A stretch of 64,000 nucleotides of DNA from Rhodoluna sp. (GCA_026393335.1 JAPLAJ010000053.1:13521-77520), one strand, 5' to 3'. Positions 1,692 to 55,126 are shown, numbered from the stretch's first letter. A program made the numbers and translations. The notes: generated from the sequence alone by a model not told the origin.

Positions 1692-1720
1692 GTGTTTCCT
1701 TAGTTAGTTAGTTCTAAAAA

Positions 1721-1999
1721 TTAGTTGGTGGTATCGAAAGCTGTGTATAGCCAAGTGATGCCTGAACCAAACATCAGATCTAAGCCGAGGATGATAAGCA
1801 TGACTACAGTTACGAAACCAAGAACGACTCCGGTGTAGTTACGAAGTTCGTTGAAAGTTGGTTTGTTAACCTTACGTAGCTCAGCGATTACCTGCTGAAT
1901 AAAAAGAATGATGCGACCGATAGGTCCGCGTGCAGCAGCGCGACTAGCCTTTGACTTTTCAACTAAGTCTTCGGATGCCTGCTCTAGTTCTTCTGACAT
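1721..1999 (-). CDS. secE: Preprotein translocase subunit SecE
   Basis: The 92-aa product has FIQQVIAELRKVNKPTFNEL followed by a single C-terminal TM helix. It lies between tRNA-Trp and nusG. Confidence 0.9.
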   Translation of the reverse strand: MSEELEQASEDLVEKSKASRAAARGPIGRIILFIQQVIAELRKVNKPTFNELRNYTGVVLGFVTVVMLIILGLDLMFGSGITWLYTAFDTTN

Positions 2000-2059
2000 T
2001 TCTCTTCCTTCAGTTAATGCTGGTGTTACTTTTCAATATCACAAATGTGACATTGTTTG

Positions 2060-2132
2060 CAGGGCAGACAGGACTCGAACCTGCAACCTGCGGTTTTGGA
2101 GACCGCTGCTCTACCAATTGAGCCACTGCCCT
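2060..2132 (-). tRNA. trpT: tRNA-Trp (anticodon CCA)
   Basis: The reverse complement AGGGCAGTGGCTCAATTGGTAGAGCAGCGGTCTCCAAAACCGCAGGTTGCAGGTTCGAGTCCTGTCTGCCCTG folds as a cloverleaf with anticodon loop CTCCAAA. It occupies the conserved position upstream of secE. Confidence 0.92.
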
Positions 2133-2276
2133 AAGGAGGCAAATGGGCACACTAATAGATTGATATCTAAAATGATTAAATTTGCCAGATTAGGCTTGGG
2201 GCAGTTGTCAAACTACCTCTAACGAGTTTAGCCCTGAGCCCCGCTAAATGCAAAGGGAGATCCTGGTCCTTGTGTA

Positions 2277-2296
2277 GGTAATGCATATGCATTACC
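2277..2296. promoter_or_regulatory. Perfect 20-bp palindrome, candidate PrlF/YhaV operator
   Basis: GGTAATGCATATGCATTACC is its own reverse complement. It overlaps the first ATGs of the ORF-track start of the antitoxin gene. Confidence 0.5.
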
Positions 2297-2304
2297 ATCT
2301 AGCC

Positions 2305-2670
2305 ATGGATGAAAACGAACTTGAATCAAGTCTCACCGACAGGTACCAAACCACCGTCCCAGCCAGGGTCAGAAAGCTCCTTGGTCTAGGCAAGAGAGAC
2401 AAATTGGAGTGGATACTCGATGAATCGGGTGGTATACGAGTTAACAAGAAGGCAGCAGAGCCAGAGCACTTTGACCCAATCTTTGATCAATGGCTGGACT
2501 TCCTTGAAAAGGACATGCTTGATCATCCTGAACGCCTAATCCCCTTGGACGATAAATGGTACGAAGACATGGTCTTCGAATTGTCTGGGGAAAGGGGTGT
2601 TGGCGTCCCTGGATTCCCGCCTACCTTGGCAGAATTCAGAGCTCAGCCAGACCTTCACGACGAGGACTAA
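2305..2670 (+). CDS. prlF: PrlF/SohA-family (AbrB/SpoVT fold) type II antitoxin. The ORF-track start is 2281, and ATG 2305 is preferred.
   Basis: TDRYQTTVPARVRKLLGL matches the PrlF swapped-hairpin motif (E. coli KVTIRGQTTIPAPVREALKL). The C-terminus is acidic. The stop directly abuts the ATG of the yhaV-like gene. Confidence 0.8.
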   Translation: MDENELESSLTDRYQTTVPARVRKLLGLGKRDKLEWILDESGGIRVNKKAAEPEHFDPIFDQWLDFLEKDMLDHPERLIPLDDKWYEDMVFELSGERGVGVPGFPPTLAEFRAQPDLHDED

Positions 2671-3120
2671 ATGGCTCTTGTGAACACATGGGGCTTGAGA
2701 GCCCACCCTGCATTTCTGCTAGTTCTAGGTGAGTATAAGAATCGAGTCCTTGAGTCAAGTAAAAAAGTTGGCAAAGACGCGCATCTAACCCATGACGGCA
2801 AACATCTAAAAGCATTGTTTGCGCTGATTCTCGACACCGTGCCATCAAATCCAGCTGATCCGAAATTTCGATTGGGAAACACTCTCGGCACTGAGTATAA
2901 GCACTGGCTTCGAGCGAAGTTCCGGCAGCAGTATCGGGTTTTCTTTAGATACAGTTCGCGAAGTCAAGCCATCGTTTATGCCTGGGCAAATGATGATAAA
3001 ACACTACGGGCCTATGGATCAAAAACAGATGCCTATCAAGTGTTTAGAAAAATGCTTGAATCTGGGGAAGTTCCGAACGACTGGGATGAGCTACTAGCTG
3101 AGTCCAAGAGACTTAGCTAA
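2671..3120 (+). CDS. yhaV: YhaV-family type II toxin (ribonuclease)
   Basis: The product is colinear with E. coli YhaV: [23 protein letters not shown]...[41 protein letters not shown]. Confidence 0.88.
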
Positions 3121-4312
3121 AGAGTTTCTGAAGTCTCTGAATACCCTCGAGAAGTTGTGCATCACCTAGAGCATAAGAAAGTCTTACGTAGCCTGAAGGT
3201 CCGAAAGCTTCTCCTGGCACAAGGGCCACTTCTGCTGCATCAAGCATGTAATCACAAAGTTCGAGGCTGGTTTCAATTCTCTTGCCGCCCCACTCTTTTC
3301 CAAGTAATCCAGTGACATCTGAATAAACATAGAAAGCACCTTGAGGTGTTGGGGCAATCCAACCAGGGATCTTGTTCAGTTCATCAACTGCAATTCTTCT
3401 TCTTCTATCAAATGCATCGCGCATTGCTAGAACTTCATCCTGAGGGCCGGTTAGAGCAGCTAGTGCTGCTCGCTGGCTGATGTTAGAAACGTTTGAGGAA
3501 AGGTGTGACTGCAGGTTAGCTGCTGCCTTCATTGCATCTAGAGGTCCAGCCATCCAGCCCAAACGCCAACCCGTCATTGCATAGGTCTTAGCAACACCGT
3601 TGACCATGATGGTCCTGTCAGCTAGTTCAGGAACAACCTCGGTAATTGAATATGCTTTTAGACCGTCATAGGTAAGGTTCTGATAAATCTCATCAGTAAC
3701 AATCCAAAGACCATTTTCATAAGCCCACTTACCAATAGCTTCAACTTGCTCACGAGAGTAAACGGCACCGGTTGGGTTAGAAGGTGAAACAAAGAGAAGA
3801 ACCTTAGTTCTAGGAGTTCTTGCCTTCTCAAGCTGATCAACAGTTACTAGATATCCTTGGTCACTTCCAGAGAAGATCTCAACTGGGACTCCGCCAGCTA
3901 AATGAATAGCTTCAGGGTATGTAGTCCAGAAAGGGGTTGGCACAATAACTTCATCGCCTGGATCAAGAAGAGTTGCGAATGCTTGGTATACAGCTTGCTT
4001 ACCACCGTTAGTAACAACAACCTGTGCTGCAGTTATTTCAGTTCCTGAATCAATCTTTGTTTTGTGAGCAATGGCTTCACGAAGTTCTGGTAAACCAACA
4101 GCTGGGGTGTAACGGTGGTTCTTAGGATCTCTAGCGGCAAGTACAGCAGCTTCAACAATGTGTTGAGGGGTTGGGAAGTCAGGTTCACCTGCTGCATAAG
4201 AAATAACCGGCTTACCAGCTGCTTGTAGAGCCTTAGCCTTAGCATCAACTTTTAGAGTGGCTGACTCTGCAATAGAGCCGATTCGATGAGAGATTCTAGG
4301 AAATTCGTTCAC
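3113..4312 (-). CDS. aspC: PLP-dependent aspartate aminotransferase (class I)
   Basis: The 399-aa product contains [18 protein letters not shown] and a [17 protein letters not shown] lysine motif. Confidence 0.9.
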
Positions 4313-13145: not shown

Positions 13146-14873
13146 ATGGTTTCTTATACAAACGAAGTTCTTGTCCGCTCTAGAAAAGATGCTGAATGGT
13201 GGCGTAAAAGCGTTATCTATCAGATTTATCCTCGCTCCTTTGCCGACGGCAATGGCGATGGTATGGGCGATCTTCAGGGAGTAACTCAGAGACTTGAATC
13301 TCTAGCAGAGCTAGGCGTTGACGCCATCTGGTTCAGCCCATTCTTCACATCTCCCCAGAAGGATGCCGGTTACGACGTTTCCAACTACAAGGACATCGAT
13401 CCTCTTTTTGGGACCCTTGCTGACTTCGATGCTTTGGTTGCTAAGGCCAACACTCTTGGATTGAAAATCATTGTGGACCTAGTCCCAAACCACTCAAGCG
13501 ATCAACACGTCTGGTTCCAAGCAGCACTGAAGGCTGCCCCTGGTTCAGTTGAACGCAACCGTTACATCTTTAGAGATGGCAAGGGCGAGAATGGTGAACT
13601 TCCTCCTAACAACTGGGAATCTGTTTTCGGTGGCGCTGCCTGGAGTCGAATTACAGAAGCTGATGGCTCATTAGGCCAGTGGTACCTGCACATCTTTGAT
13701 TCATCCCAGCCGGATTTCAACTGGCAGAACGAAGAAGTGAGAGTTGAGTTTGATTCAGTATTGAGATTCTGGTTGGACAGAGGAGCAGCTGGCTTCCGTA
13801 TCGACGTAGCTCACGGCATGATCAAGGTTGATGGCCTACCTGATGTTGTTGCGAACAACTCAACAATGTCAGGCCAAGATTCACCTGATGCAATCAAAAC
13901 TAAAGAAACAGACGATGAGCTAATCGCTCGTCTACAAGTTGAGAATCCTTTCTGGGGTCAGAACGGTGTTCACGAAATCAACAAGAGATTCCGTGCCATC
14001 TTGGATGAGTATGACGACAGAGCAATGTGTGGTGAAGCATGGGTTCACCCACTATCAAGAATGGCCCGCTGGGTCAGACCTGGTGAATACCACCAGACAT
14101 TCAACTTCGGCTACCTAGAAACCCCTTGGGACAAAGACAAGCTACACAACGTGGTGACAGAGTCTCTAAAGGAATTCGGTGCCGTAGGCGCTCCATCAAC
14201 CTGGGTACTTTCAAACCACGATGTTATTCGTCACGCCACCAGAATGGCTTACGACCAGATCCCTAAACAAGGTGATGGCATCGGCCCTAAATATGAACAG
14301 CCTGATGAAGCTAAAGGTCTAAGAAGAGCAAGAGCAGCATCTGCTTTCATGCTAGGTCTACCTGGTGGTGCTTATATCTACCAAGGTGAAGAACTAGGTC
14401 TACCTGAGCACACCACTCTAGATAACAAGTTCCGTGAAGACCCAACCTTCTTTAGAACCAAAGGTGAGCGAGTTGGCCGTGACGGCTGCCGTGTTCCATT
14501 GCCTTGGGAAGCAGGAGCTAATGAAGCTAATGGTTTCTCAACCACAGGTAAGTCTTGGCTGCCTCAGCCATCTTCATACAAGAGATATGCCAGAAGTGAG
14601 CAAGAAGGTGCAGCTGGTTCAACCCTTGAGCTATACAAGCAGTTGCTCAAGAAGCGTAAGGCTCATGACATGGGTAACGGTGAATTCCGTTGGGCTCCTG
14701 AGTTCATGGATGAATCAACCCTTGCCTATATCAACAACGGAGTTCTAGTTCTATCAAACTTCAAAGGTGACCCAGTGGTCATTCCTGCTGGAGAGATCCT
14801 TGCAACAACTCAACACGATCTAACAATTGAAGGTGAGTTAGAGCACGACAACACAGTTTGGATAAGGTTGTAA
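13146..14873 (+). CDS. aglA: GH13 alpha-glucosidase / oligo-1,6-glucosidase family (paralog 1)
   Basis: The product contains WWRKSVIYQIYPRSFADGNGDGMGDLQG, DLVPNHSS, GFRIDVAHG, GEAW and SNHD. Confidence 0.9.
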   Translation: MVSYTNEVLVRSRKDAEWWRKSVIYQIYPRSFADGNGDGMGDLQGVTQRLESLAELGVDAIWFSPFFTSPQKDAGYDVSNYKDIDPLFGTLADFDALVAKANTLGLKIIVDLVPNHSSDQHVWFQAALKAAPGSVERNRYIFRDGKGENGELPPNNWESVFGGAAWSRITEADGSLGQWYLHIFDSSQPDFNWQNEEVRVEFDSVLRFWLDRGAAGFRIDVAHGMIKVDGLPDVVANNSTMSGQDSPDAIKTKETDDELIARLQVENPFWGQNGVHEINKRFRAILDEYDDRAMCGEAWVHPLSRMARWVRPGEYHQTFNFGYLETPWDKDKLHNVVTESLKEFGAVGAPSTWVLSNHDVIRHATRMAYDQIPKQGDGIGPKYEQPDEAKGLRRARAASAFMLGLPGGAYIYQGEELGLPEHTTLDNKFREDPTFFRTKGERVGRDGCRVPLPWEAGANEANGFSTTGKSWLPQPSSYKRYARSEQEGAAGSTLELYKQLLKKRKAHDMGNGEFRWAPEFMDESTLAYINNGVLVLSNFKGDPVVIPAGEILATTQHDLTIEGELEHDNTVWIRL

Positions 14874-25463: not shown

Positions 25464-25465
25464 CG

Positions 25466-25547
25466 TGGCTAGTGAGGGATTCGAACCCCCGAAGGCTGAG
25501 CCGGCTGATTTACAGTCAGATCCCTTTGGCCGCTTGGGTAACTAGCC
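25466..25547 (-). tRNA. tyrT: tRNA-Tyr (anticodon GTA, long variable arm)
   Basis: The reverse complement is GGCTAGTTACCCAAGCGGCCAAAGGGATCTGACTGTAAATCAGCCGGCTCAGCCTTCGGGGGTTCGAATCCCTCACTAGCCA. It closely parallels the architecture of E. coli tRNA-Tyr. Confidence 0.88.
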
Positions 25548-38578: not shown

Positions 38579-39556
38579 GTGGAGATAACCAACGAAATGC
38601 GCCAGCAGATACTTGAGACTGCAAGAGTCCTAAGTATCCCGATGCGCATCAAGTTCAGAGGCATAACCACTAGAGAAGTCTTACTATTTGAAGGCCCTAA
38701 TGGCTGGGCTGAATGGTCACCCTTCACAGAATATGAAAATGAAGAAGCCAGTATCTGGCTAAAAGCAGCCATTGAGTTTGCCTTTGGCGACATCCCAGAG
38801 CCAGCTGTAAACACCATCAAAGTCAATGCCACCCTGGCTGCAGTCAAAGACGTAAGAGCAGCCCTAGAACCATTTGGCAACTTCGAAGTAGTAAAGATCA
38901 AAGTTGCCGAAAAGGGACAAACACTTCAAGACGACCTTGACCGCATCCATGAAGTAAGAAAGTACTACCCAGAAGCTCGAATAAGACTGGATGCTAACGG
39001 TGGCTACGACATAGAAACAGCATTAGCCCTAGCTAATGCAATGTACGAAGAAGGTGTTCCATTGGAATACCTAGAGCAGCCAGTAAAGACCATCGCGGAA
39101 CTTGCTGAACTAAAACTTAAACTCAAGCTTCTAAACATAAAGATTGCTGCTGACGAATCAGTGAGAAAAGTAAGTGACCCATTAGCAGTAGCTCAAGCCA
39201 ACGCAGCAGATCTACTTGTTCTAAAAGCAGCACCACTCGGTGGCATAAACAACGCACTAAGAATTGCCAAAGAAGCAGGACTGCCTGTTGTTGTATCAAG
39301 TGCATTAGAAACATCAGTAGGAATAAGCATGGGTGTTCACCTTGCCGCTCTTCTAGATAGTGATTACGCAAGCGGTCTAGGAACAGCAGCACTACTCACA
39401 GAAGATGTAACAGACACTCCCCTAATCCCAATCAACGGTCAAATACCCGTAACAAGTATCACCCCAAACAAAAACGCTCTAACCAAACTCCAAGCACCAG
39501 CAAATAGAACTACTTGGTGGATGGATAGGTTAGAGCGTTGTTTGAACGTTTATTAG
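38579..39556 (+). CDS. menC: o-succinylbenzoate synthase (enolase superfamily, GTG start)
   Basis: The product contains RIRLDANGGY, KIAADESV and LVLKAAPLGG. It is divergent from menB. Confidence 0.85.
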   Translation: MEITNEMRQQILETARVLSIPMRIKFRGITTREVLLFEGPNGWAEWSPFTEYENEEASIWLKAAIEFAFGDIPEPAVNTIKVNATLAAVKDVRAALEPFGNFEVVKIKVAEKGQTLQDDLDRIHEVRKYYPEARIRLDANGGYDIETALALANAMYEEGVPLEYLEQPVKTIAELAELKLKLKLLNIKIAADESVRKVSDPLAVAQANAADLLVLKAAPLGGINNALRIAKEAGLPVVVSSALETSVGISMGVHLAALLDSDYASGLGTAALLTEDVTDTPLIPINGQIPVTSITPNKNALTKLQAPANRTTWWMDRLERCLNVY

Positions 39557-40049
39557 GGTTTATCGTCTTGAACAAAGTATGAGCAGATTGTCTAAATATC
39601 GAATTCGATTATTGCTATTTCCAAATCAACAAACATTAATCTACAAGATCGTTTCTTGAGCATTCTTGGAACATATTGATCTTCAAAATCGAATGAGCTT
39701 TTCTCTTTCCGACTGTGGTCTGTCCCAGAAAACAGGCTCTGATGATTACCAGTTTCAAGATGCACTCGCCCCAAAACAGCTATTTGCACAAGAAAAGTAG
39801 GTACTTTTTGTGAAAGTGATTTTTCTGCGACAACGATTTTGTGGGAGAAAAGCGGCAAAAAATTTTTTAGAGATTTACCCCGTAAAAATAATTTTGAACT
39901 AGTAAAAATGTGGAATGAGGCCATGAAAACGCAGGACAACATTTTACGTTCACAATTCGCCTCAGCTGTTGCAAATTATCGAGTGAAATCGCATCGATTT
40001 CTTGTTTCACTTTGCATTTCCCCAAATCCTGTATCTAACCTAGCTGGTT

Positions 40050-40811
40050 TCATTCGGAACGGATTATTTTGGCAAAACCTTGTAAAGACTGACTCAGGTT
40101 CAAGTATGATTCATCATCGCCCCTGAAATGTAAGGTCTTTAAGTTTGGGGTTAGTTCAATTAGTTTTTCAACATTTGTCAACGAAGATATCTCCGTCAAA
40201 TCTAGCCTGCTTATGTTTGTCGCCACCCAGCTAAATGATCTGAAATCTATTGAGCGAGCATTTGCAATACCGAGGTAGCCGAGCTTTGGTAAGTCACTCA
40301 GATCAATAGATGTCTCCAACGCTCCCCGCAAAAAGAGTCTTTCAACAGAAGGAGGGAGAGTTCTAAACCATGACTTTCGCAATTGCGAAACAGAAACATA
40401 CTTTAGGCAGTGCAACTCTCTGAGTCCTGTTATGTTCTGCAAGCTCGGCGATTCGCCGTACAGCATTTCCAAATGACTTAAGTTTTTCAAATCCAATTGA
40501 GTTCCCAGATGCACTTTTAATCTCAGACTCCTCAAGGCTTTATACCCACTAATTGGCGTTAAATTTAGGCTGTCTAAAGATGTTCTAATGTCCAAGCTTT
40601 TCACTGCCTTGAGAGACATTAAAGCCTTATCAAAATTTCTTCGTACAAATTGTTCTTCAACTTCGTACCATGAATGTTTTTTTATTACAAATTGACTTGG
40701 AAGTAATGTAGCACCAAAACCAAGCATGGTAAATACACTCAAACTGGTTGTTTTAGACTCAGAGCAGTCGTATACTACGTTCAGTCTTCCATGTGCTTTC
40801 TCAATAATCAT
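40050..40811 (-). CDS. Leucine-rich-repeat protein, candidate immunity protein for the upstream RHS toxin
   Basis: The 253-aa product has no signal peptide. It carries tandem repeats of about 22 aa of the L..L..L.L type (LRSLRLKVHLGTQLDLKNLSHLEMLYG..., LSDLPKLGYLGIANARSIDF..., ISRLDLTEISSLTNVEKLIELTPNLKTLHF). The gene starts 13 nt after the toxin stop. Confidence 0.6.
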   Translation of the reverse strand: MIIEKAHGRLNVVYDCSESKTTSLSVFTMLGFGATLLPSQFVIKKHSWYEVEEQFVRRNFDKALMSLKAVKSLDIRTSLDSLNLTPISGYKALRSLRLKVHLGTQLDLKNLSHLEMLYGESPSLQNITGLRELHCLKYVSVSQLRKSWFRTLPPSVERLFLRGALETSIDLSDLPKLGYLGIANARSIDFRSFSWVATNISRLDLTEISSLTNVEKLIELTPNLKTLHFRGDDESYLNLSQSLQGFAKIIRSE

Positions 40812-40824
40812 AGTTATTGCCAGC

Positions 40825-43800
40825 CTAACCCTTTTGTTTGATGGAATTTATCTTGTTTATTAGATTTGGATTACACCCTCGGCATTTGATGCCCCCTGCT
40901 TGATTTATCAATGTTTGCTCAAATGTTCTTCTTTCAAGAACTGTCTTCCCCGGCATCTCGTGAAACACAAAATTCTCTATTTGCCCTTTGTAAGTGACTC
41001 CGTGTTCTTTCATTCGTCGAATCACATCCACGGTTTGTCCGATGTACTTTTTACCTCCCACAGTAAATTCGTAGACGCCTGGCCCTTTGGCAAGAGCAAG
41101 TTCCGTTACTTTCACGAATTCGACAGTTTTTACTGCTTTTGTAGTCGTAAGAAGGCCCTTCGCAACCTTGGCGACCTTACTCCCAATTGAAATCGCCTTC
41201 CCCACCCAAGCTGCTTGTTGAAGTCCTGGAATTGGGATAAAACTGGCTACAGTGAGAGCTAAATCCAGTGTGTCCCATCCGTCCCACAAGCCAGTAAAGT
41301 CACTTCCGTTGACGGGGTCATTTGGGTAGGTGTAGCTGTTTTCGTTTCCGCCTTTGATTGGGTCTTTTGAGGTGAATTGGTTGGTTTCAGGGTTATAGAC
41401 TCTTGCTCCCATGAGGATGAGTCCTGTGGTGTTGGTGGCTCTTTCTTGTTGACTGTAGGAGCTGTAGTTGATGAGGTTTGTGTTGGTTTGGCTGGTTAGA
41501 GGGTTGCCAAACGAGTCATAAACACTCCAGCCACCAACAGAGTTGCTGTCTAGATCCAGGGTCGTGACTGTGTGCCCACGGATGTCTGTCAACTGCATGG
41601 ACGAGGTTCTAACAGTGCCCTTGAAAGTGGTGGTAACAGCAAGCCCTGCACCTAATGATCCTGTATAGATTTCTGTGGTGAGGTTCGCCCCAGACTGTTG
41701 GGTGGTCCATTCAGGGTTATCTGAAGAGTCACTGTAATGTCTGACAGTTGTTAGGTTGCCTACTGTTTCGTTTACTCTTCTACCTAAAGCATCATAGGTA
41801 AATGAGGTTGTTGAACCAGACTGGGTGATACCTGTCACCTGATCCACCAGGCTATAGCTCAAGCTGATTCCTGCATTATTTGCTGGAGCATCAACAGCAG
41901 GGATAAACGTATTTCTACCTAAAGTGTCATAAACATAGCCATTGGTTGTGAGCTGTGATTCAGCGTTGAAACTATTTGTTTTAGTTGTGGTAGCACCACA
42001 AACTCCGACACTGCTGCTTGTTCTATCTCCTCGAGTGTTATAGCTGTAACTCTCGGAGAAACAAGAAGCACCATTAGAGGACACTGATGCAAGCCTTGAA
42101 GAAGAGTCATAACCATAAACAGTGGCCTTTGGTGAAGCACTACTAGAAGAATCAGGTGCTAGCTCTCGTATTACCCGGCCATAGCCGTCGTACTCCCTGC
42201 TCCAAGACAACACAGTAGATGCCACAGAGCCGTAACTCATTGAAGAGATCTGGCCAGCATCATTAAACATGTTGGTCTGGGTAACACCATTAGGGCCAGA
42301 CTGGCTGGTTAGCCTGCCGTATTCGTCATAAACACCCGAATACAGGTAACTGAAAGGTGTTCCGGCAGAACTAGAACCAGTGATGTTCATAGCTGTAACT
42401 AGGGCTCCAGGCTCTGAAGTATTGCCGTAAGTGTAAGAAGTGGTTGTTCGAGGTGAAACAACAGTTGAGACAGATCCTGCAGCTAACTGTCCTGAAGGAA
42501 CATAACTCGTGGAGGTAACCTCTCCTAGGCTGTTTGTTGAAGTTATCTGTCTACCCCAGGCATCGAAAGTTTGACTTGTTTCACTTTGCTTAACCCCTGC
42601 AACATAGCTTTCAGTTTTAGTCTCTAAAAGAGACACTGGATCGTAAAGGTGCTTAGTAGATATCGATGCAGCACCTGATGCTGAAACAGTTGAAGTATCT
42701 GCTCTACCATCAGCCAGATAAGTGTTTGTTGTTGTTCTAACTAGAGAACCGAAACGATATTCTGCAACAGTCAAAGGATTCAACGCAGGATCATAGGCAG
42801 AGACATGACTCTTTGATGAAGGCAGTGTTTCACCTGTTTGTGAAATACATAGCAAATCCTGCCAAGCCGGCTTCAAACCACACTCAGGGAACAAACTATT
42901 AGCAGCAGAACTGTAATACACATAGACATCAGTTCTAGCATCAACACCATTAGACCCAGGAGCAACAGATTTAACTTGCTGTCCAAGCTCATTGAAAACT
43001 GTCTTTGATGTTGAAACCAAAACCTCAGAACTATCAAAAGACTCTACGAGCGTTGGTATCCCTAAAGTCCAACCCGAAACAGTGCTGCCATCTTGAGGGG
43101 CATAATCCTTTTTTGTGCTACCCAACACTTGAATGACTGTATCTGGTGACTGCGCCAAGACTAACTCAACCTTTGAAGAAGTCAACAGGCCAGTTAACGG
43201 TTCACCCTCACGATAATCGTCATAAGTGTAACTTGTATATGTTCGAACTTCTTTAGGGTCGCCAGATGCATCCAAAACAGTCTTTTTAGGGGACCAAGTT
43301 TCAGATAGATAAGCACCATTAGGGACAGTGAAGCCATTTACCTGTGTATAAAACTTAGAGACACTGGCATACATAAACTCATCAAAGGTGCTGCCACCTT
43401 CAGTTGCTGTCCGATCTAATACGTTGTTTATACCCTGGCTATCGAATGTGGCGTAAACAACATTTTTAATTCGGATTGTTGCGGTGTAGAGCCATTTTGT
43501 TTTACCGTAGCTAGCGGTGTTAGTTGGTTTACCGTCAACATCGAGGAATGTGAAATCAGCGTTACGCCAGAGCGCACTTGTCGACGCTGGCACGATCACG
43601 TTTCCTGAAGCGTCCAGTGGGATAGTACTATCAGCCCCGAAAACGGCCGCCGCATAGAACGGGGCTGTTTCTTGACCCCAAAGCAAAGTAGTGGAAAGTG
43701 GCAAGTTCGGCAAGAAACCAGTGTTACCTGAAGGGTTCAGGTCATAAACAAAGGTTTGCTCCACGTTTGAGGAAGCAACCCAACTACTGTTTAGGCTTCT

Positions 43801-44469
43801 AGCGACCTGCACAAGCCTGCCTGAAGCATCATATTTGAATGTGTAAGGAGCGAAACCACTCACAGAAACTTTAGAAAGCTTCCCTAAACCGTTGTATTCA
43901 TAGGAGACAGTGGAGCCGTTTGTGTTATCTGTGACCTGCATCAACACTCCAGATTCATAGGTGTATGACTTCTTCAAAACTGTTACTGGTGAACCAGTAA
44001 CAAGATCTAGGTATTTGTAACTTATAGTTGCAAGCAGTCCTGCAGCGTTATAGGTGTAAACCAAACCTTGAGTAACAGAGGTACCCTGACAGCCAACTGT
44101 TCCTAAAGCTGCATATCCTGAGGCAGAAACTCGACCTGTTGCATCAAAAGTCGTTATAACTGCTCTAGTTGAAGCATTTGATTTAGCGCACAATAAACGC
44201 CAATCACCGCTAGTTGGCTTCATGAAGGTAGTAGTTGCCTGATCAGTTTCAGTAACAGTCAACACGTTTCCTGCAACTGAAACTTGCAGGTTAGCAGCTT
44301 TCGCCTCATCAGATACAGGAGTCAAAGTTGTTGTGCCACTGAACTCTAAAACATCTGAGTCAGGACTAATCAAATAGTAATGACCATTATCAGGATCGTT
44401 AGTGGCACTGTAACCAGAAAGAGCTGTCGCATCGCTAGAGAAAGATGCTGACCAACCTTCACCAAACAC
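40825..44469 (-). CDS. RHS/YD-repeat protein with an RHS core and a C-terminal GIY-YIG-like toxin domain (3' segment of a disrupted gene)
   Basis: There are many YD repeats (YTYDALGRRV, YVYDTLGRNTF, REYDGYGRVIRE, YDEYGRLTS). The RHS core ends in GARVYNPETNQFTSKDPI...YTYPNDPVNGSDFTGLW. The tail contains GVYEFTVGGKKYIGQTVDVIRRMKEH. The predicted start is an internal GTG with no signal peptide. Confidence 0.85.
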   Translation of the reverse strand: MFGEGWSASFSSDATALSGYSATNDPDNGHYYLISPDSDVLEFSGTTTLTPVSDEAKAANLQVSVAGNVLTVTETDQATTTFMKPTSGDWRLLCAKSNASTRAVITTFDATGRVSASGYAALGTVGCQGTSVTQGLVYTYNAAGLLATISYKYLDLVTGSPVTVLKKSYTYESGVLMQVTDNTNGSTVSYEYNGLGKLSKVSVSGFAPYTFKYDASGRLVQVARSLNSSWVASSNVEQTFVYDLNPSGNTGFLPNLPLSTTLLWGQETAPFYAAAVFGADSTIPLDASGNVIVPASTSALWRNADFTFLDVDGKPTNTASYGKTKWLYTATIRIKNVVYATFDSQGINNVLDRTATEGGSTFDEFMYASVSKFYTQVNGFTVPNGAYLSETWSPKKTVLDASGDPKEVRTYTSYTYDDYREGEPLTGLLTSSKVELVLAQSPDTVIQVLGSTKKDYAPQDGSTVSGWTLGIPTLVESFDSSEVLVSTSKTVFNELGQQVKSVAPGSNGVDARTDVYVYYSSAANSLFPECGLKPAWQDLLCISQTGETLPSSKSHVSAYDPALNPLTVAEYRFGSLVRTTTNTYLADGRADTSTVSASGAASISTKHLYDPVSLLETKTESYVAGVKQSETSQTFDAWGRQITSTNSLGEVTSTSYVPSGQLAAGSVSTVVSPRTTTSYTYGNTSEPGALVTAMNITGSSSAGTPFSYLYSGVYDEYGRLTSQSGPNGVTQTNMFNDAGQISSMSYGSVASTVLSWSREYDGYGRVIRELAPDSSSSASPKATVYGYDSSSRLASVSSNGASCFSESYSYNTRGDRTSSSVGVCGATTTKTNSFNAESQLTTNGYVYDTLGRNTFIPAVDAPANNAGISLSYSLVDQVTGITQSGSTTSFTYDALGRRVNETVGNLTTVRHYSDSSDNPEWTTQQSGANLTTEIYTGSLGAGLAVTTTFKGTVRTSSMQLTDIRGHTVTTLDLDSNSVGGWSVYDSFGNPLTSQTNTNLINYSSYSQQERATNTTGLILMGARVYNPETNQFTSKDPIKGGNENSYTYPNDPVNGSDFTGLWDGWDTLDLALTVASFIPIPGLQQAAWVGKAISIGSKVAKVAKGLLTTTKAVKTVEFVKVTELALAKGPGVYEFTVGGKKYIGQTVDVIRRMKEHGVTYKGQIENFVFHEMPGKTVLERRTFEQTLINQAGGIKCRGCNPNLINKINSIKQKG

Positions 44470-45284
44470 TGAGTTCTAGAAACAGATAGGGACTGTAAAC
44501 CAACCTGTTGACTGTAATCGGTAGTCGACATGTTGAATTTGCCGGAAACCAAAGAAACAATTCCAGGACCTGCTGATGCGACTGCGCTATCTAAACTATT
44601 AGGCAACCTTGTTACAGAGAAACCTGAATCATCTGAGCAAAACCATTCAGCGATAGAGGAATAGTAGAAACAAAAACGCAGATCGATAGTTACAGGAATA
44701 TTCTGCGGCAAGGAAGGAGAACTGAAAACACCGATGTTTGACACATTCAGTTTGTAATCGTAAACACCTTTCAAACCTGATTTTGTAGTCAACGGAATGT
44801 TTGATTCGGCTGCATCCCAAGCGTTGGAAGTTCCTTGTTTACGCCACTCAATGGAGGCCGAAGTTGGTTGTAAACCAGACATCGAGGCGCCGTATCCAGA
44901 GACCATAACGCTAGATGCAACGGTAGGTCCTGTCAATGGAGAAATAGCTCCCACATAGCCGAAAGTCATTGTGTGTGAAGCGGTGACAGATGCGATGCCA
45001 TTTGTTTTCTTAGCGACTGCTGTTATTCGTCGTTGAAAAGAGCCTGCAGGAAGAGAAATTGCCTGGCTCAAAGACCCGTCAACGTTTGTTTGATAATTTA
45101 CTGGCGCGGATCCATCGACACTGATGCTAAGCGTGTTTGTTCTATAGCTCTCAGGAGCTGCAGTAGAAGATACAGTACAAGTCACCGGTGCAGTTGGTGT
45201 GTATCCACCTTGGTATCCGTTTGCGTAAGGACAGGTAATAGTAGGTGTCAGTGGTTGTGTTGCTTCAACCTTGAAGGTAAGCAC
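44370..45284 (-). CDS. Middle segment of the disrupted RHS gene (Ig-like/pre-RHS region)
   Basis: It is in the same frame as 45291..46952, separated only by TAA plus 2 codons. It ends in out-of-frame junk (LSVSRTQCLVKVGQHLSL...) where the third segment's frame reads NSVFGEGWSASF. Confidence 0.6.
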   Translation of the reverse strand: MLTFKVEATQPLTPTITCPYANGYQGGYTPTAPVTCTVSSTAAPESYRTNTLSISVDGSAPVNYQTNVDGSLSQAISLPAGSFQRRITAVAKKTNGIASVTASHTMTFGYVGAISPLTGPTVASSVMVSGYGASMSGLQPTSASIEWRKQGTSNAWDAAESNIPLTTKSGLKGVYDYKLNVSNIGVFSSPSLPQNIPVTIDLRFCFYYSSIAEWFCSDDSGFSVTRLPNSLDSAVASAGPGIVSLVSGKFNMSTTDYSQQVGLQSLSVSRTQCLVKVGQHLSLAMRQLFLVTVPLTILIMVITI

Positions 45285-45290
45285 CGGAGA

Positions 45291-46952
45291 TTAGGATTCA
45301 GAACTGACTCGACTGTCAGAACTCGATGCTCTAACAAAATAGGTCTGATTATTAGTCAAAGCTGTTGTTGGTTTACAGGTGCCTGAACTACCGCTTGAAA
45401 CAATGACAGTACACAAAGTACTACTAGCCGTTGTAGAAGTTGCTGTTGGGTAGGCCTTGAAAGCTAAAGTTACATTTCCGCCATCAGGATCCAAAGCCTT
45501 AGAAGTGAAAGTAGGTTTCCAAGAACCAACACTCAAGTAACCAGAATTCTGGATTGAATCACTAACTGTAGGGGTTACAGCAGTGCCAGGGTACCGGTTG
45601 TAATTAATGGTTAGTGAAGGCTTATTGTTTGAAGCGTTCGAAGAGTTGAATCTCTTCCAACCAAAACTATCTGCCTCATTTGAGGCCTTAATGCCAAAGC
45701 CCGCTCGATTAGAAATAACCACAGGCATGTTAGCTGCCAGATTAGTTACATCCGTAGTTATGTTAGCTGCCGGACAACTCGAGTTGTAGCCCGCTGCAAC
45801 ACTTTTAGCAACACCAACACCACCAATAGTTGGGGCATTACCCCACCTAGTTGAAGGAGTGGCAGGTGAAATTGCGTAAATACTAAAGTTTCGTGCAGTA
45901 CAAGACCAAGACCAGTTCAAATACAACTTCAAGTTAGCTGAAATGATGTCTTGGCCAATCCAGCCAGTTGAATCAAAGTTTAAGTAAGACCGGTAAACAG
46001 AAGAACCACCATCAGGTGTACCAACTAAAAGTTCTGTTGAAGACTGAAAATCAGTTGTCGGATAAACGTTAGTCACATAAGTATCAAAAGTTGGATCTAA
46101 AACAACAGCTGGATCAACAATGACTGGATACTCTAAATCTTCACGCTCAAAAAATGTCCCATCAACAGCTAAATCTAAAACACCAGTAGCACCAATAACC
46201 GGTTCCAGTTCAGAAGTTATAGGCGCTGTTGCACCATCAGCAGAGTCATACATGAAAGGAGTAGGAACGGAGCCAAGCACTTGGCTTCCAGAAACAAACT
46301 CGTATCCGCCATTACTGTCGGCTTGCAGACGAACATTCTTACCCTTAACAAGAAGCTTCAACTTATCTAGAGTCGCTGCATCAGGTTTAGCTTTAACCTC
46401 AAAAGACTGTTCAAAACCAGAAGCATCCAGGCGAATCAGCAAATCAACATTAGGTAAAACATCAACAAAACGAGCAGTGTCCTCAAACAACACAGGCTTA
46501 GGTAAAGCCCCATCCCAACCAAAACCAAAATGGTTTCCATCAGACCCTGAGATACTCACTAAACCATCTGCTAAAACTTCTGCAGCAGTGCCACCACCAG
46601 AAACCTTGAAATCAAAACGACCAGATTTAGCTCGAACAAAACCCGCATCATCAAATACCAAAGTGAAATCAAGATCACGCCACCCATACTCCCCAGCACC
46701 ATCGCGAACCCTAACTGGAGCACCAAAAGACTCAGTAGTTAGAGTCCCATCAGGATTAACCCAAGTAGAAGAAAGCTCAGACAACTCAGAAATCACCAAA
46801 ATACGGTGATTAGTTATAGCAGCCTGCAACCTAGCTGAAATGTAATCCTCAGCAGCATAACTAGGTGCAACAGTGAAAGCTTGAGCAGGTGTAACGCCTT
46901 GCAGCAGTAAAGAAAGACCAACGAAAACAGAAACAAATTTTATAAACTTCAA
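45291..46952 (-). CDS. N-terminal segment of the disrupted RHS gene: Sec signal peptide plus a DNRLRE-type domain
   Basis: The signal peptide is MKFIKFVSVFVGLSLLLQGVTPAQA. SVYRSYLNFDSTGWIGQDIISANLKLYLNWSWSC...RWGNAP resembles DNRLRE domains found at the N-termini of actinobacterial RHS proteins. Confidence 0.7.
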   Translation of the reverse strand: MKFIKFVSVFVGLSLLLQGVTPAQAFTVAPSYAAEDYISARLQAAITNHRILVISELSELSSTWVNPDGTLTTESFGAPVRVRDGAGEYGWRDLDFTLVFDDAGFVRAKSGRFDFKVSGGGTAAEVLADGLVSISGSDGNHFGFGWDGALPKPVLFEDTARFVDVLPNVDLLIRLDASGFEQSFEVKAKPDAATLDKLKLLVKGKNVRLQADSNGGYEFVSGSQVLGSVPTPFMYDSADGATAPITSELEPVIGATGVLDLAVDGTFFEREDLEYPVIVDPAVVLDPTFDTYVTNVYPTTDFQSSTELLVGTPDGGSSVYRSYLNFDSTGWIGQDIISANLKLYLNWSWSCTARNFSIYAISPATPSTRWGNAPTIGGVGVAKSVAAGYNSSCPAANITTDVTNLAANMPVVISNRAGFGIKASNEADSFGWKRFNSSNASNNKPSLTINYNRYPGTAVTPTVSDSIQNSGYLSVGSWKPTFTSKALDPDGGNVTLAFKAYPTATSTTASSTLCTVIVSSGSSGTCKPTTALTNNQTYFVRASSSDSRVSSES

Positions 46953-47197
46953 GGAAATCCCCCATAGTAGAAACGAACAATAAAAAAGACTCTACTGCCC
47001 ACCACCGACAAAGTATCCCCATTTGGCAACTTATGTCCAATCGGTGTGTCTTTATTGACATAGTTCCTATTTGAGCACAAACGTACCAAAAAGGGATTTC
47101 AAATATCAGTCCGTGTTTCTATACTTTGTCGCTCAGCCCAATAGTTAACCCAGACAAAGACGTAATCAAAAGATGTAACCGCCTTGTTTGCAAGTCT

Positions 47198-48112
47198 TTA
47201 AAGACCTGAATAAACGTGTAATCCCTTGAAGTACATATTTACGATGGTGAAGTTGAAGATGATGGCTGTGAAACCTATGAGGGTTAGCCATGCTGCTCGC
47301 TTGCCTTCCCAGCCTCTTGTTGTAGTGGCGTGAAGGTAGGCAGCGTAAATAGTCCAGATGATGAAGGTCCATACCTCTTTAGTGTCCCAACCCCAGAAGC
47401 GGTGCCAGGCTTTATCAGCCCAAATAGCTCCTGCGATAAGGGTGAATGACCAGAGAATGAAACCAATGATGTTGAACTGGTAGTAAGTGCGCTCTAGCTT
47501 TTCAACCTTAGGGAAAACCTTTAGTTGCTTCTTTAGAGCTTTTACACCTTTGAGCTTTGAGTTATTGATCCACTTGCTCTCTTTGAGAATGTGGATCAAC
47601 GCAAGCGTTGCTGCAATGGTGAAGAAAGCTGTTGCAAGAATTGCAACGCTTACGTGGATTACTAACCAGTAATCCTGCAGAGCTGGAAGAAGAGATTCAA
47701 CCTGGACATAGAACAATGTGTTGGCTGAACCAATGATTAGAACTACAAATCCTGCTACGAAAGAAGAGATGAACTTAATGTCTTTGAAGAGCAGTGAGAG
47801 TAAGTAAATGGATGTAACTACAAAAGCACCTGAGATTGAGAACTCATACATGTTTGCCCATGGCACACGGTTCGCAGCGATACCTCTAGTTAGAACCCCA
47901 ATACCGTTAGCTACAACACCAAGAGTGAAGAGAGTAAGACCGATGGTGTCTAAACGATTAGCAAAGGCGCCTTTCTTTCCTTTTGCTCCTGCTCTCTTGG
48001 TTAGAGCCCAGGTTAGAACAATGAATGCAAATGAATAGAAGGTCAAACCGATCAAGACAATAAATCTTGACAGGGTAGCAAGCTCTGGGTTCAGTGCAAT
48101 CTCTGGTGTCAT
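47198..48112 (-). CDS. ccsA: Cytochrome c biogenesis protein CcsA/ResC (System II)
   Basis: It carries the Trp-rich heme-handling motif WHRFWGWDTKEVW and has multiple TM helices. It follows resB. Confidence 0.9.
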   Translation of the reverse strand: MTPEIALNPELATLSRFIVLIGLTFYSFAFIVLTWALTKRAGAKGKKGAFANRLDTIGLTLFTLGVVANGIGVLTRGIAANRVPWANMYEFSISGAFVVTSIYLLSLLFKDIKFISSFVAGFVVLIIGSANTLFYVQVESLLPALQDYWLVIHVSVAILATAFFTIAATLALIHILKESKWINNSKLKGVKALKKQLKVFPKVEKLERTYYQFNIIGFILWSFTLIAGAIWADKAWHRFWGWDTKEVWTFIIWTIYAAYLHATTTRGWEGKRAAWLTLIGFTAIIFNFTIVNMYFKGLHVYSGL

Positions 48113-52945: not shown

Positions 52946-53284
52946 ATGTTTGAACGTTCTTCCCAAATACAAGGCGTCAACGCCTCGTATACAGAAGATC
53001 AGCAAGATCAATACAAAGCACAACATGATGCAATAGCTAACGCCATTGCTGAACAGAAACGTAAAGGCTCGCTTTACAACGACGTTGATGTTCAAAAACT
53101 TATTGCCGATCACTACGCATTCATCAAACTGTTCTGGACACCAAACAAGCAGGCCTATAAATCTCTCGCTTTGACATATGTACTGGACCCGGCATTCGAA
53201 GCAGCATATGAGTCGTTCGAGCCGGGTCTTGCTAAATACATCAAGAGTGCGATCGAGATCTGGGCAGATCAGAACTTGGCATAA
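52946..53284 (+). CDS. Stand-alone TipAS antibiotic-recognition-domain protein
   Basis: The 112-aa product contains HYAFIKLFWTPNKQAYKSLALTYVLDPAFEAAYE, typical of the TipAS domain. It starts 4 nt after the aspS stop. Confidence 0.7.
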   Translation: MFERSSQIQGVNASYTEDQQDQYKAQHDAIANAIAEQKRKGSLYNDVDVQKLIADHYAFIKLFWTPNKQAYKSLALTYVLDPAFEAAYESFEPGLAKYIKSAIEIWADQNLA

Positions 53285-53305
53285 CTTGTTGAATAGAAAT
53301 AACTT

Positions 53306-53713
53306 TTAGCCGTCGTGTTTTGACCAATCAAGAACAGCTAAATCTGGAACTCTCCTGAAGTGTTTTATGTTTCTTGTGACTAGCACAGCACCTTGAGAGA
53401 GGGCGTGCCCCGCAATCAATGGATCAATGTTGCCTATCCCCATGCCTTCGCGTGTCAGCTGAACCACTAATTTGCCGGACTGCTCAGAGGCTTGCTTATC
53501 AAAGGGTATTACCTCAATCATCGAAGTAAACAAGCGAAGATTAGCAAGTGATCTTGGGCCTATGTTCTGACTGTTTGCCCCTGCCCAGAGTTCGTGGGCG
53601 ACAATTGATGACATTGCCAGATCCTGAATGCTTGCTAGTTCAAAATTCAAAAGGCTTTCTCGTTGGAATCTCATAATGTCAATGATGGTGCTGGCATCTA
53701 GGTGGTACTTCAT
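53306..53713 (-). CDS. vapC: VapC-family PIN-domain toxin
   Basis: The PIN acidic residues lie in YHLDAST, AHELWAG and IDPLIAGHA, followed by LVTRNIKHF. It overlaps the upstream antitoxin gene by 4 nt. Confidence 0.85.
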   Translation of the reverse strand: MKYHLDASTIIDIMRFQRESLLNFELASIQDLAMSSIVAHELWAGANSQNIGPRSLANLRLFTSMIEVIPFDKQASEQSGKLVVQLTREGMGIGNIDPLIAGHALSQGAVLVTRNIKHFRRVPDLAVLDWSKHDG

Positions 53714-54039
53714 TCGGAATCTCTAAAAAACTCGGCAACTGCTGGATTTATTGTTGGGACAGAAACATCCTTTTCGAATTCCATAGCCTTTATTTCTGCT
53801 CGCTCTTCTTCTGTGAGCGATTTGACCATGGCGATGAACGCCACCTTCATGGCTTCTCTATCCATTGGCTCGATGGTGATAATCCTGGTGACGGGATCGC
53901 AAGAGATTCTCACCTGTTCCGTCTCGATTCTCATGGCTGCGGGTATTCGAATTGCCTGGCTACCTCCGTTCATGAACATCCTGGTAATCACGCTTTCGAT
54001 TGCAGTATCTGGTGCTTTCTGGATCACTTTCTTACTCAT
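53710..54039 (-). CDS. vapB: VapB antitoxin (AbrB/MazE/SpoVT fold)
   Basis: The motif FMNGGSQAIRIPAAMRI is present. It is translationally coupled to vapC. Confidence 0.8.
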   Translation of the reverse strand: MSKKVIQKAPDTAIESVITRMFMNGGSQAIRIPAAMRIETEQVRISCDPVTRIITIEPMDREAMKVAFIAMVKSLTEEERAEIKAMEFEKDVSVPTINPAVAEFFRDSE

Positions 54040-54066
54040 CTCTCTGCCCTCTTTGTCGATTAATCT

Positions 54067-54088
54067 GTATAGACATATCGTATAGACA
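54067..54088 (-). promoter_or_regulatory. Tandem 9-bp direct repeats, candidate VapB operator
   Basis: GTATAGACA-TATC-GTATAGACA (plus strand) lies 28-49 nt upstream of the vapB start. Confidence 0.45.
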
Positions 54089-54100
54089 ATTTTGGAGAAG

Positions 54101-55126
54101 TCAAGAGGTTATTCGCAGGTCCAAACTGTGGAATCTGGAAGGTATGAATTTGTAATCTTCAAGATCAAAGATGATTTCTGAGGTTGGAAGTACTTCCCAA
54201 TCAGAGAATCTTAGGAACCACTCTTCAAGAACAACTCTTGTTTCTAACTGCGCTAGATGCATACCTATGCAAGAGTGTCTGCCGTAACCAAAACCAAGGT
54301 GAGGGTTAGCTCCCCTATCTAGTTTGATTTGTTCCGGATCTTGAATTACTTCCTTGTCTTGGTTTGCTGAAACAAAAGATAGCCAGGCATAAACAGGTTC
54401 AGTTGGGTTAGTTGTTTGTTCTGTATCAATTCTGTGCATCATTGGAAGGGGAGATAAGAACCTAACCATTTCATTTATGAACTCAGGCATACGTTCTGGT
54501 TGAGCCTTTAGGGTTTGTAAATGCTCTTTATTTTTGGCTAGATGCCAGAGAGATCCTGATATAAGTTTCACAACTGTATCTCTACCGCCAGCTAGCACTA
54601 GGTTAGCCATTCCATATTTCTCTTTACGAGTTAGGGTTCTGCCAGCCATTTCAGCCCTATTCAAAATTCCAAACAGGTCTTCGGTTGGCTGCTCATCTAA
54701 TTCATCAAATGCCTTCTTTAGGTATCTATCCAGGTGATCTCCATGACGGATACCATCTTCATCAGTAATCCAGGTATCTGGCCCCCAAGAGAACCACTCC
54801 TGGACATCCTGAGGTCTACCAAAGACAACACCTAAACATTGAACAATCATTTGCAGTGCTAGATCGTGAGTAATCTCAACTTCACTTTCAAAAGAACCAA
54901 TGAGCGCTTTGGCTATCTTTCTGAACTCTGGTTCAAACTGAGCAACGCTGTCTTTACTAAACCATGGGTTCAGTAAAGCTCGCATTTCTGTGTGGTGAGG
55001 AGGGTCGACTTCTAGAGGTAATTGCTTGTAATCTCTAACGTCCTGGTCGCCTTGCAGGTCACTGGAGTATTTCTCATAGTCTCTGGCTGCTGCTCTAACA
55101 TTTGCCGAACCTTTGATGATGTTCAT
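54101..55126 (-). CDS. Cytochrome P450, N-terminally short (341 aa)
   Basis: It has an I-helix (LAGGRDTV), the ExxR motif (EMVRF) and the heme-thiolate loop FGYGRHSCIGMHLA. The ATG overlaps the stop of the upstream Grx-like gene (TAATG). Confidence 0.85.
   Translation of the reverse strand: MNIIKGSANVRAAARDYEKYSSDLQGDQDVRDYKQLPLEVDPPHHTEMRALLNPWFSKDSVAQFEPEFRKIAKALIGSFESEVEITHDLALQMIVQCLGVVFGRPQDVQEWFSWGPDTWITDEDGIRHGDHLDRYLKKAFDELDEQPTEDLFGILNRAEMAGRTLTRKEKYGMANLVLAGGRDTVVKLISGSLWHLAKNKEHLQTLKAQPERMPEFINEMVRFLSPLPMMHRIDTEQTTNPTEPVYAWLSFVSANQDKEVIQDPEQIKLDRGANPHLGFGYGRHSCIGMHLAQLETRVVLEEWFLRFSDWEVLPTSEIIFDLEDYKFIPSRFHSLDLRITS

Follow-up and report, generated by a model that had tools for sequence, protein, structure and literature searches.

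Polymorphic toxins of the Rhs and WapA type are well known, mostly from work on dense communities and on Firmicutes or Proteobacteria. In Gram-negative bacteria, the Rhs effectors of type VI secretion systems (T6SS; RhsA, Tse5 and RhsP) consist of a YD shell, a core with an autoproteolysis motif and an encapsulated polymorphic toxin; they come with an immunity gene and with orphan C-terminal (CT)/immunity modules made by C-terminal displacement. In monoderm hosts, WapA of B. subtilis and WapA-CT1 of S. suis combine a Sec signal with a YD/RHS shell and core, a polymorphic tip and an adjacent immunity gene. S. suis WapA-CT1 carries a DNRLRE domain after the signal, followed by Rhs and the C-terminal toxin, and antagonism depends on the signal sequence (PMC12704120). 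Here, we analysed a locus at positions 39557-47197 of a 64-kb stretch of DNA (the window; 64,000 nt, GCA_026393335.1 JAPLAJ010000053.1:13521-77520) from a contig of a metagenome-assembled genome (MAG) of Rhodoluna sp., which was assembled from short reads; all coordinates are those of the whole window. Its architecture supports a reading as a WapA/Rhs-type polymorphic toxin locus with an adjacent immunity candidate, as a first inspection of the DNA (the sequence-only reading) had proposed from architecture and position, and in the assembled sequence the toxin gene is disrupted by two lesions. Rhodoluna are tiny planktonic freshwater actinobacteria with small genomes, in agreement with the streamlined planktonic actinobacterium that had been suspected as host, and no paper linking Rhodoluna and Rhs was found in the literature.

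The coding capacity of 39557-47197 is confined to the minus strand. Three consecutive open reading frames (ORFs) fill the toxin region (45291-46952, 553 aa; 44370-45284, 304 aa; 40825-44469, 1214 aa), and a further ORF of 253 aa (40050-40811) begins 13 nt past the stop codon of the 1214-aa ORF. A protein of a Rhodoluna sp. MAG is 100% identical to the 1214-aa ORF, and its record also holds the three other ORFs. The first two ORFs share one frame and are divided by a single TAA; the 1214-aa ORF is in a different frame. Intact homologues are single proteins of 2044-2073 aa with 82-92% identity. In the following, L-numbers denote related genomic loci and P-numbers homologous proteins that were compared with the window.

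Read across the three ORFs, the domains stand in the order that had been recognized from the sequence alone: signal peptide, DNRLRE domain, Ig-like modules, YD/RHS shell, RHS core and short tip. The signal peptide was assigned by inspection, the DNRLRE domain, shell and core by profile matches. The 553-aa ORF starts with a putative Sec-type signal peptide (aa 1-25, 46878-46952; MKFIKFVSVFVGLSLLLQGVTPAQA, then the cut before F), which by eye has a basic n-region, a hydrophobic core and an A-x-A motif (A-Q-A) ahead of the predicted cut, and in which neither a lipobox nor a twin-arginine motif was seen by inspection; it is conserved in the homologues P0002-P0026. The conserved region that follows (aa 26-289, 46086-46877) matched no Pfam or NCBIfam family and aligns with full-length homologues, Tessaracoccus proteins included. 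Next comes a DNRLRE/CBM96 domain (aa 290-450, 45603-46085) which matched NF033679 with E=3.3e-24 and 85.8 bits (cut-off 34) and PF24517 CBM96 with E=1.3e-15. The ORF ends in a probable first beta-sandwich module (aa 451-553, 45294-45602), as judged from sequence character and conservation in the alignment, which had no family match. The 304-aa ORF had no family match either, but an AlphaFold2 model of 273 of its residues (m343bb9b926cc), computed with 22 homologues, was all-beta with a predicted local distance difference test (pLDDT) score of 85.8, and its top Foldseek matches in the PDB were tandem FN3/Ig modules (CbhA 3pdd, E=1.6e-5; neuroplastin; LdtMt2). The predicted Ig-like part was borne out in this way as two Ig/FN3-like beta-sandwich modules at 44631-45257.

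The 1214-aa ORF, which has no signal peptide, consists for the most part of the YD/RHS repeat shell (aa 1-983, 41521-44469; RHS repeat PF05593, E=2.2e-13; YD repeat TIGR01643, E=8e-10), and homologues carry precomputed PF25023 TEN_YD-shell matches. The shell is followed by the RHS repeat-associated core (aa 984-1061, 41287-41520), which ends in ...NDPVNGSDFTGL and matched TIGR03696 with E=2.3e-13 and 50.4 bits (cut-off 32.5), covering profile positions 1-76 of 76. The residues R...SKDP...SDFTGL occur in the sequence; as in Tc/Rhs structures, they would function in autoproteolytic release. Another 153 residues lead from the core to the C-terminus.

These residues contain the toxin tip, with a predicted GIY-YIG (Tox-URI-like) nuclease domain at 40837-41091 and the stop codon at 40825-40827. 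An exhaustive HMMER search with the tip retrieved 50 relatives among 1.84 billion representatives, 28 of which were aligned. Y23, Y32, G34, R42 and E74 are invariant in the 28 aligned tips and one H is near-invariant; in the window tip, the motifs GVYEF-x6-KYIGQ...RRMKEH...ERRTFEQ...NKIN stand in GIY-YIG order with the usual spacing. PF01541 was matched at E<=0.01 by 27 of the 28 homologous tips (best E=5.7e-10), and the profile of the tip family matched I-TevI (1mk0, E=1.8e-4), UvrC (1ycz, E=1e-3) and T4 endonuclease II (2wsh, E=0.015) in the PDB. The published signature of Tox-URI1 is Y, YxG, R, [RK]xxE and N, and this toxin domain is found on RHS proteins, including those of Actinobacteria (Zhang et al. 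2012, PMC3482391); the window tip family shares an invariant Y, Y-x-G, R and E-Q and the distal N and is likened to Tox-URI1 by that signature. Because of the PF01541 matches of the family, the invariant residues, the profile matches in the PDB and the fit to the Tox-URI1 signature, we read the tip as a nuclease of the GIY-YIG superfamily, an assignment made at the level of the family.

Between core and nuclease stands a hydrophobic hairpin, WDGWDTLDLALTVASFIPIPGLQQAAW, in a pre-toxin linker (WDGWDTLDLALTVASFIPIPGLQQAAWVGK..., 41092-41286) which had no Pfam match. The hairpin is common to different tip types and recurs ahead of unrelated tips; possibly it serves in translocation or as a pre-toxin module. 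It lies at window 41197-41286 and is also present in P0030, P0032, P0043, P0080 and P0102; its motif reads W-x-W-x-D-T-L-D-x-A-L-T-V-A-S-F-I-P-I-P-G-L-Q-Q-x-A-W or, in distant actinobacteria, KWDIALTAASFVPG-x-GAA-x-WAYR. Behind it the family is highly variable: proteins that are 82-92% identical to the window RHS body bear at least six unrelated tips. Most tips of P0004-P0028 are non-enzymatic, glycine/alanine-rich hydrophobic sequences of ~150-200 aa which are paired with a small hydrophobic membrane-like protein. The tip spectrum suggests that membrane-disrupting toxins may be the commonest payload of the RHS family in these freshwater actinobacteria.

Compared with WapA, the Rhodoluna protein shares the monoderm type of host, the shell and core, a putative Sec signal, the polymorphic tip and the adjacent candidate immunity gene. 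It differs in size (~2050 aa versus >300 kDa), in having Ig/FN3-like spacers, in its actinobacterial host, in the predicted GIY-YIG nuclease in place of the tRNases of B. subtilis WapA and in the disruption of the window copy. The secF-like and srtB neighbours of WapA are replaced by ccsA and menC, and no sortase or secF-like gene adjoins the locus. Tessaracoccus defluvii P0030 (2116 aa) and the Streptomyces proteins P0040, P0042 and P0043 match it in length and in the order of domains, albeit with only 26-28% identity. The alignment of P0030 spans 100% of the 1214-aa ORF (E=5.7e-70); the protein has a precomputed PF01541 match at its tip and carries the same kind of pre-toxin hairpin. For these actinobacterial DNRLRE/RHS-core proteins, database annotations but no functional study were found in the literature. 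Unlike the T6SS Rhs effectors, with which it shares the YD shell, the core motif, the polymorphic tip and the orphan CT/immunity modules of its family, the Rhodoluna protein has no PAAR- or VgrG-binding N-terminus and belongs to a monoderm host with no T6SS, where export would be by Sec.

The 253-aa protein encoded downstream is full length (40050-40811) and is, according to its AlphaFold2 model, a leucine-rich-repeat (LRR) solenoid. The model had a mean pLDDT of 79; block means rose from 72 to 97 over residues 51-253 and were >=80 from about residue 60. In a Foldseek search of the PDB, 32 of 32 matches at E<=0.001 were LRR proteins or complexes containing one, among them InlA, InlB, LIC10831 and the Nogo receptor (E=3e-5 to 1e-3). 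Profile matches were weak (LRR_EndoS, E=0.019; internalin_H, E=0.011; for the distant homologue in L001, LRR_4 with E=0.22). A word-indexed search gave eight relatives, and JGI annotates one homologue as an LRR protein. The sequence-only reading had described a small cytoplasmic repeat protein; the repeat fold stood, but the location is not established, because the N-terminal stretch is borderline hydrophobic (residues 23-42, hand-calculated Kyte-Doolittle mean ~1.6) and two homologues, P0092 and P0094, bear an extra hydrophobic N-terminal extension of ~115 residues which looks transmembrane-like by eye. The first 50 residues (window 40661-40811) were modelled with pLDDT <40 and the protein has no classical signal peptide. 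It may be membrane-tethered rather than soluble.

The downstream gene varies together with the tip. L084 has the same tip, followed by a 79%-identical protein of 252 aa; in L001, a diverged GIY-YIG tip is followed by a 25%-identical relative of 267 aa; and hydrophobic, apparently membrane-type tips are paired with unrelated hydrophobic membrane-like proteins of 100-182 aa. Furthermore, the LRR gene is under purifying selection: against L086, a 95.5%-identical strain, the nonsynonymous divergence (dN) was 0 at a synonymous divergence (dS) of 0.03, and against L084 dN/dS was 0.22. From the 13-nt gap, the co-variation with the tip and the purifying selection, we infer a candidate immunity role, in which the LRR protein would bind and neutralise the adjacent nuclease in the producer. 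Tox-URI1 has been found paired with Imm14, Imm26, Imm44 and Imm51, and an Imm-LRR class is listed next to toxins of type V secretion systems (T5SS) and in polyimmunity loci; both the nuclease and the LRR class are thus catalogued, but a GIY-YIG and LRR pair is not in that table (PMC3482391).

The same modules might also be read as a surface adhesin or as a teneurin/Tc-type toxin directed against eukaryotic grazers, with an LRR protein that has nothing to do with immunity. DNRLRE/CBM96 and Ig-like modules are a typical part of surface proteins, binding outside the cell is a frequent role of LRR proteins, and in planktonic Rhodoluna contact between cells should be rare. We nevertheless regard this as very improbable, since the tips are polymorphic among proteins of >80% identity and each comes with its own small downstream gene, orphan CT/immunity arrays exist, the GIY-YIG tip is of a kind catalogued in polymorphic toxin systems, and the downstream gene of the window follows 13 nt past the stop codon and encodes no classical signal peptide. 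An interbacterial toxin with its immunity candidate is the preferred reading of the locus.

In the window, the toxin gene is interrupted twice. DNA alignments place an in-frame TAA nonsense codon at 45291-45293, where intact homologues have TTA (Leu); TTA is found in L001 and in L089, and L089 is otherwise identical over the surrounding ~100 nt, leaving one T-to-A change. The junction of a frameshifting deletion of 37 nt lies at 44472-44473. The missing nucleotides are present in all five loci aligned there (L001, L002, L084, L089 and L091) and encode YTGNSFYTDTQSS, a stretch at the start of the RHS shell, in a DUF6531-like plug region. The single 6-kb gene of the sequence-only reading is split in this way into the ORFs of 553, 304 and 1214 aa. 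Only the 553-aa ORF retains the signal peptide, and shell and tip are severed from the export signal, so that the locus as assembled is a disarmed toxin gene beside a retained putative immunity gene and not the working weapon in which the genome had been thought to invest.

The window toxin gene is probably a genuine pseudogene. The reality of the lesions is favoured because two lesions of different kinds occur in one gene, because the ends of the deletion share a microhomology of ~5 nt at most (TCAGT), which is too short for a k-mer mis-join, and because family members from other samples are interrupted as well: L091 has an in-frame stop, P0078 and P0018 are split on one contig and P0023 has a frameshifted C-terminal tail. 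Decay of such genes appears to be common. These three points also speak against the opposite explanation, according to which the toxin gene is intact and functional and the TAA and the 37-nt gap are errors or minority alleles that entered the MAG consensus because the RHS body is common to several co-occurring strains. That explanation, which we consider unlikely but far from negligible, is favoured by the source being a MAG contig and by an RHS body which is 94-100% identical between genomes that are otherwise 76-82% identical, a setting in which assemblers mix strains.

Several observations weigh against a functional-type toxin locus that was recently inactivated in this genome. Some of them concern the lesions and count in favour of an intact gene. 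On the terminal branch of the window, dN/dS of the RHS body was 0.087, not above that of the flanking genes; intact copies are under strong purifying selection with a dN/dS of about 0.12. Relaxed selection was considered as evidence for a pseudogene and dropped, as no relaxed constraint was seen; the lesions, if real, are therefore recent, and a dN/dS without decay fits a very recent inactivation and an assembly error equally well. Other assemblies of the strain break at the RHS 3' end: the contigs encoding an identical immunity protein (L085-L088) start there, at window 41367 or 41731, short of both lesions, and neither lesion was seen on any independent contig. The clusters to which the three ORFs belong contained no second copy with the frameshifted tail. 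JGI metagenome contigs were scanned for exact copies of the deletion junction and of the nonsense site in both allelic forms; there was no match, a result which is uninformative because the strain is not in that collection. Other points concern the nature of the proteins. The window tip alone stays below the PF01541 cut-off (E=0.008-0.017, 15.9-16.9 bits versus 22.6), and a single-sequence search with it against PDB sequences found nothing; no LRR Pfam model reached threshold in the immunity candidate; and, unlike in WapA, neither LysM nor other cell-wall-binding repeats nor a sortase signal were matched in the three toxin ORFs with Pfam and NCBIfam. Taking both sides together, we hold with moderate confidence that a toxin locus of functional type was recently inactivated here.

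The locus lies in a slot between conserved respiratory genes, as had been stated from the sequence alone. The left boundary of the slot is ccsA (47198-48112, minus strand), a cytochrome c assembly gene (Pfam PF01578 Cytochrom_C_asm, E=5.7e-41), beyond which resB, ccdA (DsbD_TM) and resA (Redoxin) follow in syntenic loci; the right boundary is menC (38579-39556, plus strand) of the o-succinylbenzoate synthase family (PF13378 MR_MLE_C, E=3e-30; PF18374 Enolase_like_N, E=1e-26), beyond which menB, menE, menA, menD and menF follow. A scan with one genome per species gave 80 loci with ccsA in Rhodoluna, Aquiluna and further Microbacteriaceae, 74 of which had both ccsA and menC on the contig. An RHS gene between the two was found in none of these 74 resolved loci. 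The distance from ccsA to menC was at most 60 bp in 60 of them, 61-300 bp in 2, 301-700 bp in 9, 701-1500 bp in 2 and more than 1500 bp in 1. Against L009, the closest RHS-free relative, homology ends at window 47197 and resumes at 39546. In L001 and L089/L090, the slot is filled by an intact RHS gene whose tip and partner gene differ from those of the window; one is probably present there in L084, too. Beyond the 74, the slot of L028 probably also holds an RHS gene, as an RHS N-terminus stands directly past ccsA at the end of the contig. Further RHS homologues were found at two other sites, adjoining ychF (L002, L003 and L091) and adjoining tatA (L092 and L093). The island is accessory and varies between strains, as the sequence-only reading had proposed; the comparison of the junction found it absent from the 74 resolved species-level relatives, and the RHS and DNRLRE profiles matched its proteins.

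Among the closest relatives that lack an RHS gene here, the slot holds other cargo, which is hypervariable. In L004-L007, L009, L012, L013 and L017, it carries a small ORF of 125-190 aa that combines an N-terminal zinc ribbon (CxxC...CxxC) and a conserved AQ[DN][RK]TT-x-A[VI]R[SA]LA motif with a hydrophobic tail, and L011 has two such ORFs. L010 contains an unrelated small hydrophobic ORF, L008 a C5 DNA methyltransferase (1704-3175) and L016 two ORFs with hydrophobic membrane-like sequences (1334-2730). A remnant of such a zinc-ribbon or membrane gene was looked for in the window and rejected, since neither a tblastn trace nor DNA similarity of the slot sequences to the island was detected. 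Rather than being specific for RHS genes, the ccsA-menC slot appears to be a general hotspot.

Two explanations remain to be considered for the island: it could be a core feature conserved in the lineage, or it could be a mobile element carried by an integrase or insertion sequence (IS). RHS genes in the same slot of L001, L089, L090 and L028, the last with only 59% ccsA identity, could be taken for a core feature; the 0 of 74 species representatives with RHS in the slot and the lack of RHS in L009, which is 93% identical to the window on the men side, lead us to reject it. A mobile element is likewise rejected: no integrase or IS ORF was found in 39557-47197, no tRNA gene within 14 kb (the nearest is at 25465-25547) and no flanking direct or inverted repeats beyond chance, which agrees with what had been noted by eye.

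The identity to L089 is uneven along the window, with the RHS gene at the centre of what seems to be a recent recombination tract or else an assembly of mixed strains. At the nucleotide level, it is 76-82% in ccsA-resB; in the RHS gene (window 41287-47000 compared with L089:10001-15772), it is 94-96% over most of the length, 89-92% in the 3' third and 100% at 43000-43999; and on the men side it drops from 93% at menC to 67-85% at greater distance. In line with this, dS was 0.18 for the RHS body and 0.74, 1.20 and 0.36 for ccsA, resB and menC. The window stops resembling L089 exactly where the core ends (41287) and stops resembling L001 shortly after (41149), and other tip/immunity cassettes follow. 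The uneven identity and the breaks at or after the core point to exchange by homologous recombination, which would use the conserved flanks and the conserved RHS body. A substrate for tip exchange is seen in the ychF slot of L091 (6213-14600). Here, the RHS gene with the in-frame stop (498 + 1434 aa) is followed by a gene for a hydrophobic, apparently membrane protein of 114 aa, by an orphan RHS C-terminal fragment (252 aa), which has a different tip and comes with a 100-aa gene of its own, by an orphan protein of 113 aa that shares 77% identity with the L089 immunity candidate, and by a further RHS relic (14395-14577); such orphan CT and immunity genes are the classical substrate. The window itself has no orphan CT/immunity module downstream, where the spacer is non-coding; the feature is common but not obligatory.

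The tip, the immunity candidate and the spacer (39557-41286) have the lowest GC content of the 64 kb (0.402 versus a window mean of 0.450, z=-3.1), in agreement with the AT-richness that had been noticed by eye; the RHS body (0.445) matches the genome. The spacer between the immunity candidate and menC (39557-40049, 493 bp) is AT-rich (GC 0.371) and contains no conserved ORF. It is near-identical in L086 and alignable with L084 only with indels, with short conserved blocks persisting in the latter, e.g. GGTGCATCTTGAAACT and TTATTCGATTTT. An ORF of 116 aa at 39592-39942 was considered as a second immunity or orphan gene and rejected: it is absent from the protein collection, has no family match and is broken in L084 by frame-disrupting indels (overall identity of the high-scoring segment pair, 78%); it is probably spurious. 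No Rfam match at E<=1 was found in the spacer or in the island. Scans for promoters and terminators found fewer sites in the real sequence than in shuffled controls, and therefore no claim is made on transcription.

Elsewhere in the window, a second stretch, 53276-55124, is variable in comparison with L001 and L089. It contains a 135-aa ORF which by eye is PIN/VapC-like and an overlapping 109-aa ORF which was taken as its antitoxin (53306-54039), followed by a 341-aa ORF (54101-55126) with the motif FGYGRHSCIG, presumably the heme-binding signature of a cytochrome P450. L089 has a different MazE/PIN pair at this place.

In sum, we propose that ccsA and menC, two convergent core genes, enclose a slot (39547-47196) which varies between strains of this Rhodoluna lineage and which holds a WapA-like locus in the window. 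In its intact form, the form seen in sister strains, the locus would encode one protein of ~2050 aa, which would be exported via Sec by the N-terminal signal peptide and presented or released through the carbohydrate-binding-type DNRLRE/CBM96 domain and the Ig/FN3-like spacers. The C-terminal tip would be enclosed in the YD/RHS shell and cleaved at the aspartyl-protease motif of the RHS core, and the GIY-YIG (Tox-URI-like) DNase would be delivered into competing bacteria while the LRR protein neutralises it in the producer. In the window strain, the TTA-to-TAA change and the 37-nt deletion would have inactivated the toxin gene recently, so that shell and toxin could no longer be exported, and the immunity gene would have been kept; the strain would be disarmed and presumably still protected. 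The locus as a whole would be exchanged between diverged strains by homologous recombination, with the tip/immunity cassette swapped just past the RHS core.

As a polymorphic toxin locus it is ordinary; what is unusual is the host, and in this genome the locus is probably disarmed. The known workings of Rhs toxins are unchanged by these findings; their value is ecological. Rhodoluna has a full Rhs toxin family with the usual traits: tips are swapped, orphan modules occur, at least three chromosomal slots are used and diverged strains share tracts of up to 100% identity. The window copy would be a natural case in which the toxin was lost and immunity kept. A wider view, to which we give only a low probability as a whole, is that streamlined freshwater plankton trade Rhs toxins and often discard them, that alleles of the RHS body sweep by homologous recombination at fixed slots through lineages with flanks of ~78% identity, that strains are repeatedly disarmed into "immune cheaters" which keep the immunity gene, and that the toxin, having no wall anchor, acts as a released, bacteriocin-like capsule and not through contact between cells. 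In that view, the GIY-YIG/LRR pair would join a DNase to its inhibitor, much as RNase A is joined to the ribonuclease inhibitor, and would be uncatalogued for polymorphic toxins. The findings suggest that even in dilute plankton the diversity of strains is shaped by antagonism and immunity.

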